NCBI GenBank assembly: GCA_035627955.1
Contig: DASPKU010000002.1
Coordinates: 22,277-86,276 of the forward strand
Source: Phycisphaerales bacterium
GTDB taxonomy: Bacteria; Planctomycetota; Phycisphaerae; Phycisphaerales; UBA1924
DNA: 64,000 nucleotides
Direction of reading: 5' to 3'
Positions 33,196 through 50,412 of this stretch are shown here, piece after piece. Made by a program: the position numbers and the translations under genes. Each line of letters starts with the position of its first letter. The first letter of the stretch is position 1. The notes below the pieces were generated by a model. That model made no database searches. It had not been told where the DNA came from and was given only the letters and a program-made list of their open reading frames with translations.

Positions 33196-34326
33196 ATGGC
33201 CTACGCCGTGCTCGCCCGCCGTTACCGTTCCCAGGAGTTTGCCGAGGTGGTCGGCCAGCAGGCCATCGCCAACACCCTGGCCAACGCCATTAAGGCCAAC
33301 CGCGTCGCCCACGCCTACCTCTTCGTCGGCACCCGCGGCGTTGGCAAGACCACCATGGCCCGCCTCTTCGCCAAGGCCCTCAACGGCGGCTCCCCCGAGA
33401 TCGACGCCCTCATCATGAAGGGCCACGACACCGACGTCATCGAGATCGACGCCGCCAGCAACAACTCCGTCGAGCAGGCCCGCGAGCTGATCGCCAACTC
33501 CGTCTACAAGCCCCTCCGCGGCAAGTACAAGGTCTACATCATCGACGAGGTCCACATGCTCTCGACCGCGGCGTTCAACGCCCTGCTCAAGACCATGGAG
33601 GAGCCCCCCGAGCACGTCGTGTTCATCCTCTGCACCACCGAGACCCACAAGGTCCCCGCCACCATTCAGTCCCGCTGCCAGCGCTTCGACTTCCGCAATA
33701 TCCCTTCGTCGCTGGTCGCCGAGCACCTCACCCGCGTCATCAAGGACGAGAAGCTCACCGCGGACCCCGAGCTCGTGCACCTGGTCGCCCACCTGGGCAA
33801 CGGCTCGATGCGCGACTCTCTCACGCTGCTCGAACGGCTGATCGCCTCGGGCCAGACGCACCTCACAGTCAAGCTGCTGGAGGAGCTGCTGGGCCTGCCC
33901 GAGCGGAGCGTGTTGTCGGACCTCATTGACGCCCTCGCCAGCGGCGACCCGGCCGTCGCGCTCGCCAAGGGCGCCGACATGCTCTCGCGCGGGATCGGCA
34001 TCGACCAGCTGCTCGAGACCCTGCTGCACCGCCTCCGCGACCTGATGATCATCGCCGCGTGCGGCCCGCAGACGCCGCTGGTAGAGCTCTCGGACTCCGC
34101 CCGCAAGGACGAGGTCGAGCGGGCCGGCAAGTTCGACGCCGCGGGCCTGGTGCACATGATCGCCCTGTGCGAGAACGTGCAGCGGGCGGCGAAGAACTCC
34201 GCCGTGCCGCGGGCCCTGCTCGACGCCTTGCTGGTGCGATTGGCGATGACAGACAAGATCGCGGACATCACCGCCGTGATGGCCGGCGCCCCGCGCAACG
34301 GAGCCGCTCCAGCAAAAAAACGCTGA
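33196..34326 (+). CDS. dnaX: DNA polymerase III subunit gamma/tau, zero-frame product (gamma-length, domains I-III)
   Basis: AHAYLFVGTRGVGKTT Walker A, IIDEVHML, SRCQRF sensor. The frame ends ...APAKKR-TGA immediately after the A AAA AAA heptamer at 34314-34320. Confidence 0.9.
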   Translation: MAYAVLARRYRSQEFAEVVGQQAIANTLANAIKANRVAHAYLFVGTRGVGKTTMARLFAKALNGGSPEIDALIMKGHDTDVIEIDAASNNSVEQARELIANSVYKPLRGKYKVYIIDEVHMLSTAAFNALLKTMEEPPEHVVFILCTTETHKVPATIQSRCQRFDFRNIPSSLVAEHLTRVIKDEKLTADPELVHLVAHLGNGSMRDSLTLLERLIASGQTHLTVKLLEELLGLPERSVLSDLIDALASGDPAVALAKGADMLSRGIGIDQLLETLLHRLRDLMIIAACGPQTPLVELSDSARKDEVERAGKFDAAGLVHMIALCENVQRAAKNSAVPRALLDALLVRLAMTDKIADITAVMAGAPRNGAAPAKKR

Positions 34327-34928
34327 CGGCGACAGGTGTCCTGGGTGGCACCGGTCTCCCGACCGGTGTTCCAAAGCCTGCCGCCGTTCCCGCGCCTGCA
34401 CCCCTCGCCCCACGCCCCGCGGCCGCGCCACCCGCGATGCGCCCCGCCGCACCCACGCGCCACGAGGTCGAGGCCAAGCCGCCCATTTCCGGCGTCACGC
34501 GTTTGCCCGGCAACCTGCCTGAGGACCCCGTCGCCCTCTGGAACATGGTGACCGAGGCGTGCCAGAAGCAGCACCGCATGCGGATCCTGGTGGGCAGCCT
34601 CAAGCTCGTCACCAAGGACGAGCACAAGGCCGTGCTCGAGGTCTCCGACGAGATGCGGACCGCCGCCCAGTCCGCCGAGCGCGACCTGTGCACGCTGCTG
34701 AGCATCGCCTGGGGCCAGAACCTCGCTATCGAGCTCAAGACCGCCAGCGGCGAGAAGGTCGAGCCCCTCCCCAAACCCGCCGCTGCCACCACTTCGCCGG
34801 GCGCCGCACCCAACCCACCCGCCACGCCAACTACCCCCATTAGCGACCATCCGCTGATCAAGCAGGCCACCGAGCTCTTCGGCGCCAAGATCATCAGCAC
34901 CCAGCCGCGGAAGAAGCAGGGGGAGTGA
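34314..34928 (+). CDS. dnaX: dnaX tau-specific C-terminal region, readable only after a -1 shift at 34314-34320
   Basis: The -1 frame continues KKTLTATG...Pro/Ala linker...WNMVTEACQKQHRMRILVGSLKLV...DHPLIKQATELFGAKIIS. That is a typical tau domain IV/V and the conserved DnaX C-terminal tail. Confidence 0.7.
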   Translation, partial: KKTLTATGVLGGTGLPTGVPKPAAVPAPAPLAPRPAAAPPAMRPAAPTRHEVEAKPPISGVTRLPGNLPEDPVALWNMVTEACQKQHRMRILVGSLKLVTKDEHKAVLEVSDEMRTAAQSAERDLCTLLSIAWGQNLAIELKTASGEKVEPLPKPAAATTSPGAAPNPPATPTTPISDHPLIKQATELFGAKIISTQPRKKQGE

Positions 34929-34975
34929 AGCACAGCTCCCGGGCGGTTCAGCTGCTACTGCCGCTCGCCTGCCTC

Positions 34976-35400
34976 GGGCTCCGAAGGAGCCCCGGAGTGT
35001 TGCCACCAGTGGAGCAAGCGGCGCTTCGCCGCGAGCGCAACTGGTGGAAGGCAGGCCCCTCATATACCTTCCTTCCTTCGCATGCCGCTCCAACGGAGCG
35101 GCGGAGGGCCCAGGCCCCCGCCGCACGCCCCTGTCCTCCTCCCCCGCCCCCGCTCCAACGGAGCGCCGGAGTGTTGCCACCAGTGGAGCGCAGCCGCGCT
35201 TCGCGGCAAGCGCAACTGGTGGAAGGCAGGCCCACCCCTTACCTTCCTTTCTCTGCTTACCCGCTCCAACGGAGCGCCGGAGGGCCCAGGCCCCCGCCGC
35301 ACGCCTCTGTCCTCCTCCCCCGCCCCCGCTCCGAAGGAGCCCCGGAGTGTTGCCACCAGTGGAGCAAGCGGCGCTTCGCCGCGAGCGCAACTGGTGGAAA
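34976..35400 (+). repeat. array of three REP units of about 75 nt at a period of about 176 bp
   Basis: The units begin near 34976, 35151 and 35328. Each contains a GCTCC-GAAG/AACG-GGAGC hairpin, then CGGAGTGTTG, then CCACCAGTGGAGC...GCGCAACTGGTGG (an 8-bp stem enclosing an inner GCGGCG-CTTC-GCCGC hairpin). The inter-unit segments are also repeated. Confidence 0.85.
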
Positions 35401-35460
35401 ACAGCCCCCTCCATTACCCTCCCCCTTCCCATTGCGCTCCAACGGAGCGGCGGAGGGCCC

Positions 35461-35913
35461 ATGGCCGGCACATTCTCCCAGCTCCTGCTCCACGTTGTCT
35501 TCTCGACGAAACGCCGCGACCCCTGGATCACAGCCGAGATCGCACCAAGGCTCCATTCCTACATGGGCGGCATTGTGCGGGCCGAAAAAGGAACGGCCCT
35601 GAACATCAACGGCGTTGACGACCACGTGCACATGTACATCCGCTGGCGTCCCGACGTGTGCATCTCCGACCTCATGCGGGTGGTGAAGTCCCGCTCCTCA
35701 GCCTGGGTCCATGACGAGTTCCCCCGGCTCAGCCGCTTCGCCTGGCAGGAGGGCTACGCCGCGTTCACCGTGAGCAAGTCGCAGGAGCCGGCAGTCATGC
35801 GCTACATCGATACGCAAGCCGAGCACCACCAGAAGATGGACTTCCGCACGGAGTACCTGCAATTGCTGCGAGCGCATGACTGTGAGTTTGATGAGCGGTA
35901 TGTGTTCGACTGA
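35461..35913 (+). CDS. REP-associated tyrosine transposase (RAYT; IS200/IS605 Y1 HUH family)
   Basis: LLLHVVFSTKRRDPWI N-terminus, HUH motif DDHVHMYI, and catalytic Tyr motif RYIDTQ. 150 aa, flanked by REPs. Confidence 0.85.
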   Translation: MAGTFSQLLLHVVFSTKRRDPWITAEIAPRLHSYMGGIVRAEKGTALNINGVDDHVHMYIRWRPDVCISDLMRVVKSRSSAWVHDEFPRLSRFAWQEGYAAFTVSKSQEPAVMRYIDTQAEHHQKMDFRTEYLQLLRAHDCEFDERYVFD

Positions 35914-35916
35914 ACT

Positions 35917-35938
35917 CCTCCGCCCCTGAAGGGGCGGA
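35917..35938 (+). terminator. hairpin immediately after the RAYT stop
   Basis: ctccgcccc-tgaa-ggggcggag, a perfect 9-bp stem 4 nt after the TGA. No U tract follows (it is followed by agcaaaagaag). Confidence 0.4.
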
Positions 35939-35972
35939 GAGCAAAAGAAGACAGGGGTTTGGGGCGTGCCCA

Positions 35973-36048
35973 CCTTCCACCAGTTGCGCTCGCCGCGAAG
36001 CGCGGCGTCGCTCCACTGGTGGCAACACTCCGGGGCTCCTTCGGAGCC
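35973..36048 (-). repeat. REP unit in inverted orientation downstream of RAYT
   Basis: ccttccaccagttgcgctcgccgcgaagcgcggcgtcgctccactggtggcaacactccggggctccttcggagcc is the reverse complement of the upstream REP consensus. Confidence 0.85.
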
Positions 36049-36121
36049 GGGGACACAGATGCTGACTTAGAACCAAATTTCTGGCGCAAGCCCGCCCCCA
36101 GCCTCAGAGACGGCGCGCCAC

Positions 36122-49494: not shown

Positions 49495-50412
49495 TCACTC
49501 CGGGATCGGCACCAGGAAACTCGGCTGCGCGCTCGCCTTCGCCTGGTTCTTCACCTTCACCAGCAGCTGCGCCCCGTTCACCAGGTTGAACGGGTACTTC
49601 CGCCGCGCCTCGCTCAGCGCAAACGACTCCCGCCCCGGCTTGGTCACGTCGTGGTCCTTGGGCCCGAACACCCCCACCGTCACCATGCTCCCCCGTTGGC
49701 CGTGGTAGTAGAACGCCTCCTCACCCTCGCGCCGCAGGTTGTTCACGGCCTGTTCCGCGTTCTTCCTGAACTCCGCCAGCTCCTCCGGCTTGGGGTGGTT
49801 CACATTCAAACGCGTGTACATCGCGATCTGCAGCGTGTACAGCGCATCCTTCCCCCGCGCCTTCTTCACGCTGCTCAGGTTGTACTCGGGGATCGACCCC
49901 TCCAGCGCCTCAAACGGCGGCGGCACCATCACCGCACCCCGGAACGGCCGCTCCCCATCGACCTCGATCCCCTGGATTCGCTCCAGGTCCCGCCCCGCCT
50001 GCGGGTCATCCGGCCCCGAGTACCGCCCGTACGCCACCACCACGCTCTTGCCGCGCTGCTCGGTGTACGCCTGCGGCAGCCCCCCCACCGTCCGCACCTT
50101 CTGCAGCGCCGTCGCCGCCAGCTCATTCGCCTGCTCGCCGCTGGCCGCGACAATCACGATCGACCACGCCGCCTGCCGCGCCTCACCGCCCGGCGCCCTG
50201 GGCGCGCTGTTCATCACCTCCGGCGCTTCCTTCGCAAAGGGCTCGAACGCGAGCTTCGGCTGCTCCGCCGGGCGAGCCTCAGGCTTCGCCTGGTCCTTTG
50301 CCGCTCCACCGCCGCACGCCCCCAGCATCACCACCAGCGCGCACAGCGACGCCACGCCCCACGCCCGTGCAAACCTTGAAACTTTGAGGCACGAAAAAAA
50401 CCCTGCTCGCAT
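49495..50412 (-). CDS. lipoprotein with two SPOR-like repeats
   Basis: Lipobox VVMLGACGG. It has two segments with the SPOR-like pattern (WSIVIVAASGEQANELAATAL...VVVAYGRY; YTLQIAMYT...MVTVGVFG). Confidence 0.5.
   Translation of the reverse strand: MRAGFFSCLKVSRFARAWGVASLCALVVMLGACGGGAAKDQAKPEARPAEQPKLAFEPFAKEAPEVMNSAPRAPGGEARQAAWSIVIVAASGEQANELAATALQKVRTVGGLPQAYTEQRGKSVVVAYGRYSGPDDPQAGRDLERIQGIEVDGERPFRGAVMVPPPFEALEGSIPEYNLSSVKKARGKDALYTLQIAMYTRLNVNHPKPEELAEFRKNAEQAVNNLRREGEEAFYYHGQRGSMVTVGVFGPKDHDVTKPGRESFALSEARRKYPFNLVNGAQLLVKVKNQAKASAQPSFLVPIPE

Follow-up and report, generated by a model that had tools for sequence, protein, structure and literature searches.

The dnaX gene in a 64,000-nucleotide (nt) stretch of Phycisphaerales (Planctomycetota) DNA (contig DASPKU010000002.1), hereafter the window, stops at gamma length in its own reading frame, and the sequence corresponding to the tau-specific part of the protein continues in the −1 frame from a slippery heptamer, A_AAA_AAA, that lies just before the stop codon. 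Comparison with related genomes indicates that tau in this clade is very probably made by recoding of some kind, and that the recoding is probably a programmed −1 ribosomal frameshift with its outputs swapped relative to Escherichia coli dnaX. An earlier note, made from the letters of the window, had proposed that dnaX yields gamma by default and makes tau only through a −1 shift, and the clade-wide comparison of split dnaX genes backs this assignment. Tau links the polymerase with the clamp loader and is essential to the replisome; if the proposed reading is true, its supply in the window clade hinges on −1 frameshifting being efficient.

Frame anatomy and conservation of the split gene

The frame-0 open reading frame (ORF) of dnaX ends in GCA AAA AAA CGC TGA. 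We rechecked the letters and coordinates of this site, which agree exactly with the earlier note's account of a frame that stops after A AAA AAA and yields a 376-residue, gamma-length protein. The first A of the A7 run is the third base of an alanine codon, which places the heptamer in phase with frame 0. Beyond it, the −1 frame adds 202 new codons up to position 34928, or the 204 counted in the note if the two lysine codons are included. The predicted −1 fusion has 577 residues (61.6 kDa), with a junction reading ..PAKKTLTATG.. and ..GAAPAKKTLTATGVLGG.. as its predicted junction peptide. The frame-0 product matches DNA_pol3_delta2, DNAX_ATPase_lid and DNA_pol3_gamma3 in Pfam, and TIGR02397 dnaX_nterm (3e-112) and PRK05563 (2e-120, profile positions 1–361 of 567) in NCBIfam; the same 376-residue protein is recorded at NCBI as HYE60826.1, 'DNA polymerase III subunit gamma/tau'.

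The slippery site at the A7 run is more than a chance occurrence. Runs of seven A's number two in the 68%-GC window, compared to a mean of 0.23 in shuffled sequences. Lysine is encoded by AAG at all 17 positions elsewhere in the frame-0 ORF; AAA occurs just twice, both times in the shift site. The base immediately 5′ of AAA AAA is A in 13 of 13 loci with the A-type heptamer, whereas four-fold degenerate codons end in A at a background rate of 7%. The one other A7 run of the window (50394–50400) lies among spurious-looking long ORFs and is possibly intergenic.

The window comes from a metagenome-assembled genome, and homopolymers are classic sites of indel errors, so the run might have been misread from a true A8 that leaves dnaX as one ORF. 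Several comparisons speak against such an error. Contigs of two independent ENA assemblies contain an identical 29-nt site, and the same ending recurs in 117 of 120 homologue clusters that stem from many studies and assemblers. These homologues are the 120 best matches to the fused protein, all from Phycisphaerales, at 67–100% identity; every one is 372–413 residues long, that is, of gamma length, and none is full-length. Since a fused relative would outscore gamma-length matches, a full-length protein would have shown among these 120. Their C-termini consist of two lysines followed by zero or one codon and a stop in the 117 cases, and of PK-R-stop in two more, the remaining sequence being an uninformative fragment.

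DNA was at hand for 15 split relatives (L003–L005, L083–L085 and L087–L094), which were produced with varied assemblers and include contigs of 2.9 Mb (L089) and 4.6 Mb (L088). In all 15 there is an in-phase heptamer, a frame-0 stop zero to five codons farther on (zero or one codon in 14 of them) and a −1 frame that continues past the stop. The heptamer is A_AAA_AAA in 13 of these loci and C_CCA_AAA in the other two, L084 and L085. These two, which were sampled independently, share the CGCTGAC flank of the window and have CG C_CCA_AAA CGC TGA at the homologous position, without a homopolymer; their −1 reading continues as PKTLTA... In L004 the run is truly A8, yet a −1 shift is still required. 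The conservation of a stop right after the run means that reading the window's run as A8 makes no sense. On this comparative evidence the error explanation appears effectively refuted, with a negligible chance of being correct.

The earlier note had also envisaged that reads might support A8 and a single ORF, or that relatives might have an unbroken ORF with no slippery run. Neither was found: A7 with its stop recurs in independent assemblies and among the 15 split relatives; no unbroken dnaX ORF turned up among relatives of at least 65% identity (the genome scan for relatives under-sampled close ones); and the more distant genes that are unbroken do carry runs. The comparison of the site in related genomes that the note had suggested gave the same −1 shift in 15 of 15 split loci. 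The homologue L086 (P0061, 390 residues; 376–1599) has no heptamer and a divergent C-terminus reading ..EAGSRKG; it was set aside as uninformative because its contig ends 51 nt past the stop.

By profile comparison, the −1 ORF encodes the C-terminus of tau. When a profile of the clade's −1 products was aligned by hhalign with one built from the C-termini of unbroken DnaX (25 proteins), the probability was 99.0% and E = 5e-18 over 129 columns; the match spans a domain of ~70 residues as well as the tail motif DPL[IV]K.A.ELF.A.[IV]V. The earlier note had described this frame as a tau linker, a C-terminal domain and a conserved tail. Only the profile–profile comparison decided the homology, as a Pfam search of the −1 product matched no family and pairwise blastp against unbroken outgroup tau proteins gave weak but collinear alignments (best E = 0.007). 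NCBIfam returned a weak match of the −1 product to PRK14948 (profile positions 440–548 of 640), and a metagenome scan with the C-terminal −1 product returned a single locus. A similar tail motif occurs near the C-terminus of many unbroken outgroup tau proteins, and within the clade it lies close to the C-terminus of all complete −1 products except that of L005, in which an extra acidic tail follows the motif. Substitutions between the window and L083 fall at −1-frame codon positions 1, 2 and 3 in the numbers 6, 5 and 13, a weak bias toward the third position.

The extension takes two forms in the relatives: a long form with domain and tail, as in the window, and a short form with linker and tail. 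Long extensions comprise 174–224 residues and keep both domain and tail. Short extensions comprise 73–125 residues (L003, L004, L005, L085 and L087) and have lost the ~70-residue domain, with the linker and the DPLVK..ELF tail kept. When a profile of the long-form extensions was compared with known structures, the N-terminal domain of DnaA was matched weakly (E = 2e-4), which we take as a weak lead on fold class only. The extreme C-terminus of tau in E. coli is the binding site for the alpha subunit of the polymerase, and by analogy the tail of the clade's tau may bind alpha.

Candidate stimulators on either side of the heptamer

The coordinates of the shift site, its candidate stimulators and the two products are given in Table 1. 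The 72-nt stretch that holds the downstream stem-loop (34321–34392) has a folding z-score of −4.59, with none of 200 shuffled sequences as stable; throughout, support for stems was drawn from the stability of each sequence relative to shuffles and to its local background. Downstream folds across the loci have z-scores from −2.7 to −5.4, and of the 12 loci tested first, 11 have a stem that begins 3–7 nt past the heptamer, as do L092–L094; the stems differ in sequence. By minimum free energy, the 60 nt past the site are more stable than the local background (Fisher p = 5e-7, an optimistic value for related loci), with a rank within the top 8% at 8 of 11 loci. The apex of the window's composite stem is a 9-bp hairpin (34348–34369), which contains the 8-bp hairpin CACCGGTC-TCCC-GACCGGTG at 34349–34368. 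The earlier note had reported this smaller hairpin, correctly as to sequence and position, and had judged it, at 28 nt from the heptamer, to lie far downstream for a stimulator; that spacing does not hold, as the hairpin is the tip of a stem based 4 nt from the heptamer.

Upstream of the heptamer, a Shine–Dalgarno (SD)-like GGAG, GAGG or GGGG is present at a distance of 7–12 nt in 12 of the 12 split loci tested. The duplex energy of these motifs with a generic anti-SD sequence, which may not be that of the host, ranks in the top 1–20% of each locus's own background (combined p = 4e-6). The same motif is visible in L092–L094, and L007 and L008, two unbroken relatives considered below, have GGAGGA. 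An upstream hairpin, GGAG-CCG-CUCC, was entertained as a slippage stimulator and dropped, as inspection by eye found no conservation of it in relatives.

Table 1. Features of the split dnaX gene in the window (positions in the 64,000-nt stretch)
Feature	Position	Strand	Remarks
dnaX frame-0 ORF, gamma-length DnaX, domains I–III	33196..34326	+	376 residues, 40.7 kDa; default product
SD-like GGAG, candidate 5′ stimulator	34300..34303	+	10 nt upstream of heptamer; putative 16S anti-SD pairing
Slippery heptamer A_AAA_AAA, X_XXY_YYZ phase relative to frame 0	34314..34320	+	in phase in 15/15 split relatives
−1-frame ORF, tau-specific extension	34320..34928	+	202 codons + stop; reached only via −1 shift
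Frame-0 stop TGA ending gamma	34324..34326	+	one codon 3′ of heptamer
Composite stem-loop, 64 nt, candidate 3′ stimulator	34325..34388	+	−39.7 kcal/mol; base 4 nt past heptamer
C-terminal folded domain, EDPVALWNMV...AIELK	34521..34739	+	aligns with the corresponding domain in unbroken tau
Conserved tau tail motif DHPLIKQATELFGAKIISTQ	34845..34904	+	found in every complete −1 product

Proposed ribosomal frameshifting and its alternatives

In the mechanism that we propose, ribosomes that remain in frame would read GCA AAA AAA CGC and then TGA, releasing a 376-residue gamma-like clamp-loader subunit. A substantial fraction of ribosomes would instead pause with tRNA-Lys on AAA AAA, kept there by two elements: the 64-nt stem-loop, whose base 4 nt downstream would sit at the mRNA entrance, and the upstream GGAG, which would pair with 16S rRNA. 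Both tRNAs would then re-pair one base back on A_AAA_AAA, and translation in the −1 frame (..AKK-TLTATG..) would give a 577-residue tau consisting of the frame-0 domains followed by linker, C-terminal domain and conserved tail. From sequence, we infer that the shift occurs on the ribosome, how efficient it might be and what part the SD-like motif might play.

A ribosomal shift is preferred over a transcriptional one because of the fixed X_XXY_YYZ phase of the heptamer, the C_CCA_AAA variant, the SD-like motif and the nearby stem. The codon phase of the heptamer is constant in 15 of 15 split loci, and the run is A7 in all loci of the A type except for the single A8. The C_CCA_AAA sites retain the pattern needed for tandem slippage with a run of only four A's, which favors the ribosome over slippage by RNA polymerase. 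If RNA polymerase instead added one A on the A7 template, A8 mRNAs would arise and ordinary translation of these would give tau. The homopolymeric A7 of most members and the A8 of L004 fit this possibility, as do related Planctomycetota with A9–A10 at the same position, which look like the Thermus site, and Antonov et al. (2013; PMC3711429) argued for realignment at A10 in two-ORF dnaX genes and extended the argument to shorter runs. However, L084 and L085 still require the −1 frame with four A's; the run is phased in all 15 split loci, whereas the A9–A10 runs of unbroken relatives occur in all three phases; the run stays at seven, with no growth to nine or ten; and polymerase slippage gives no role to the stem conserved downstream or to the SD-like motif conserved upstream. 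Judged from these sequence patterns, slippage leaves the C_CCA_AAA members, the fixed phase and the flanking elements without an explanation, and we regard it as an improbable source of tau in the clade.

The gene might also simply be split or truncated, with the clamp loader using the 376-residue protein only and the downstream ORF either initiating on its own or decaying as a remnant. Gene callers do place a separate 163-residue protein at ATG 34437 (HYE60827.1, 'hypothetical protein VD997_02430', a tau-frame fragment spanning 34437–34928), and the GC content of codon positions 1, 2 and 3 in the Pro/Ala-rich linker (0.75, 0.69 and 0.71) shows no third-position periodicity that would favor the −1 frame. 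Several relatives, however, do not have the start codons that a free-standing gene would use. The extension is without any ATG in L004, L005 and L085; the first NTG of L085 falls within the tail motif, and that of L089 at codon 120 of 172, past the conserved domain. With start codons missing or too late at these four loci, independent initiation is unlikely to make the extension. Decay is likewise at odds with a −1 frame that is open for 71–222 codons past the shift site, with the conserved tail, at every locus readable to a stop, and neither version of a split gene explains the conservation of a phased heptamer, an adjacent stop and a stem. Nor could a C-terminal peptide on its own hold the polymerase and the clamp loader together. 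We consider a split gene very improbable, less probable still than polymerase slippage.

Several observations weigh against programmed ribosomal frameshifting. The frame-0 stop of L005 lies five codons downstream of the heptamer, and L087, in which the stop abuts the heptamer (A_AAA_AAA_TGA), has no downstream stem. RNAalifold applied to eight sequences found only a trivial 4-bp helix, with no consensus stem and no covariation support, a result that we attribute to loop-length indels that misalign the 3′ arms; when the folds of the window and L083 were compared by eye, two apical pairs were doubly changed and still paired, and two others were broken. The SD-like matches are only 4–6 bp each and lie in a G-rich linker, and the significance tests on the stem and the SD-like motif pool related sequences, which makes their p-values optimistic. 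A search of the window with Rfam found no rRNA, hence the 3′ end of 16S rRNA is not within it, and the only tRNA in the window is a tRNA-Ser, the tRNA-Lys genes lying outside; pairing of the SD-like motif with 16S rRNA and the argument from tRNA-Lys are thereby presumptive. In E. coli, A_AAA_AAA shifts less readily than A_AAA_AAG (PMC5009743). Finally, slippage may contribute to tau in the A7 and A8 members.

Known dnaX systems and site states across Planctomycetota

The arrangement seen here, which the earlier note had called 'inverted logic', is not new in kind. Antonov et al. (2013; NAR 41:6514, PMC3711429) described two-ORF dnaX genes in which tau is made by recoding, comprising 17 genes from 12 genera, and a later review restates that tau requires recoding in such genes (Atkins et al., 2016; PMC5009743); these cases belong to other phyla and are mostly A10. 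The poly-A cases came from Chlorobi, Bacteroidetes and Coraliomargarita, with A10 in 9 of 12, these nine being credited to transcriptional realignment (PMC3711429). Chlorobium phaeobacteroides dnaX has A7 (PMC3711429) and E. coli-like stimulators (PMC5009743). The dataset included two Planctomycetes genomes, and no planctomycete case is named (PMC3711429). Our full-text literature searches found no paper tying Phycisphaerae to dnaX recoding. The reversed dnaX arrangement is thus known in other phyla and new for the Phycisphaerales lineage.

The window's gene is like the two-ORF genes of Antonov et al. in having −1-related ORFs, a frame-0 gamma stop just past an A-rich site at the domain III boundary, and a tau that needs a shift. 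Of the traits of such genes, the overlapping −1 ORFs and the adjacent frame-0 stop are present here, and all 15 split loci agree in where the shift lies and in which direction it goes. The clade is unlike most of those cases in having A7 in a fixed phase, a C_CCA_AAA variant and conserved candidate stimulators on its flanks, features that point to the ribosome. In E. coli, the dnaX cassette consists of A_AAA_AAG, an SD sequence 10 nt upstream and a stem-loop about 6 nt downstream (PMC3711429, PMC5009743). The window resembles it in the gene, the domain boundary, a putative three-part layout with similar spacings and a stop one codon on in the frame of gamma. It differs in that frame 0 leads to gamma and the −1 frame to tau, in that the last base of the heptamer is A rather than G, and in its longer stem (the 64-nt composite). 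A search of 34150–34550 with Rfam at E values up to 10 found no DnaX element, returning only nhaA-I and mir-564, both far below their gathering scores; with no match near threshold, the site does not belong to the E. coli-type DnaX family at the level of sequence.

In Thermus thermophilus, dnaX is described as undergoing slippage of RNA polymerase at a run of nine A's, with tau templated in frame 0 and stops in both alternative frames (Larsen et al., 2000, as summarized in PMC1088944). The site in the window is like the one in that account in having an A-run at the boundary between gamma and tau and, as proposed here, two DnaX products. It is unlike that A9 site in having a shorter run (A7, with A8 in L004 and only A4 in L084 and L085) in a fixed codon phase, and compared to nine A's, four are too few for slippage of the kind that account describes.

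Unbroken relatives might have been expected to be without a shift site; instead, most have one at the boundary between domain III and the linker. Unbroken dnaX genes with runs of A8–A10 at codons ~373–420 are found in L006, L009–L012, L014, L015, L017, L020, L041, L055 and L072, from Sedimentisphaerales and Tepidisphaeraceae (both Phycisphaerae), Gemmata, Aporhodopirellula, Pirellulales and Planctomycetaceae. The runs occur in any of the three codon phases, with stops within 12 codons in both alternative frames except at the A8 locus, L012, and no consistent stem was found 3′ of them in these unbroken relatives. By analogy, these sites look like Thermus-type sites of transcriptional slippage for producing gamma; we found no paper describing slippage-type A8–A10 dnaX sites in Planctomycetota.

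The nearest unbroken relatives, L007 (3658–3725) and L008 (3634–3690), are 53–54% identical and carry a cassette of the E. coli type. GGAGGA lies 8–9 nt upstream of an in-phase A_AAA_AAA, a −1-frame stop follows after one or two codons, and stems with z-scores of −3.3 and −2.7 begin at the heptamer or within a few nt of it. By E. coli logic, tau would be read in frame 0 in these two loci and gamma would come from the −1 shift. In an approximate neighbor-joining tree with no support values, L007 and L008 form a group with L005, which is split, and L006, which has A10; this group is the sister of the main split clade, and the split clade together with the L005–L008 group is nested within the A8–A10 lineages. 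The split dnaX of L005 (1390–1421) thereby groups with L006–L008 outside the main split clade, a placement that may reflect a frame swap made independently or an intermediate stage of one. Because its sisters have tau in frame 0 with either A8–A10 or an E. coli-type A7, the arrangement of the window clade is, on these sequences, best understood as descending by a swap of frames from a recoding site that was already present in an ancestor.

Among the genomes sampled, the site states are A9–A10 with tau in frame 0 in most Planctomycetota, the E. coli type in L007 and L008, and the frame-swapped type in the window clade. One phylum might therefore hold, at one homologous position, all three logics by which dnaX is known to give two products (A9–A10 slippage-type, E. 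coli-type and frame-swapped), perhaps with the swap having occurred repeatedly; we offer this as a tentative idea that is somewhat more likely to be wrong than right. If it is true, it would be a natural demonstration that a recoding site of roughly 50% efficiency makes the choice of default frame nearly neutral. With sites of slippage type, E. coli type and frame-swapped type at one position, the 'single-indel role reversal' suggested by Atkins et al. (2016; PMC5009743) would also become directly testable. If frameshifting operates as proposed, the ratio of tau to gamma in the clade would be set, and possibly regulated, by the decoding of rare AAA codons. The clade provides the clearest comparative evidence we have found that tau itself can rely on ribosomal frameshifting, since the natural C_CCA_AAA variant breaks the homopolymer and keeps the tandem-slippage pattern.

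The recoded tau of the window is unannotated. With the gene split in public records and 120 of 120 homologues of gamma length, tau is effectively missing from the annotations of the clade.

Directly 3′ of dnaX, the region 34970–36055 contains three tandem repeats of ~175 nt (34978–35500) and an inverted copy (35956–36055) around an ORF for a Y1 transposase (PF01797). No Y1-transposase ORF was found downstream of dnaX among the called genes of L092–L094. From its sequence organization, the region in the window looks like a REP/RAYT-type array inserted directly 3′ of dnaX.

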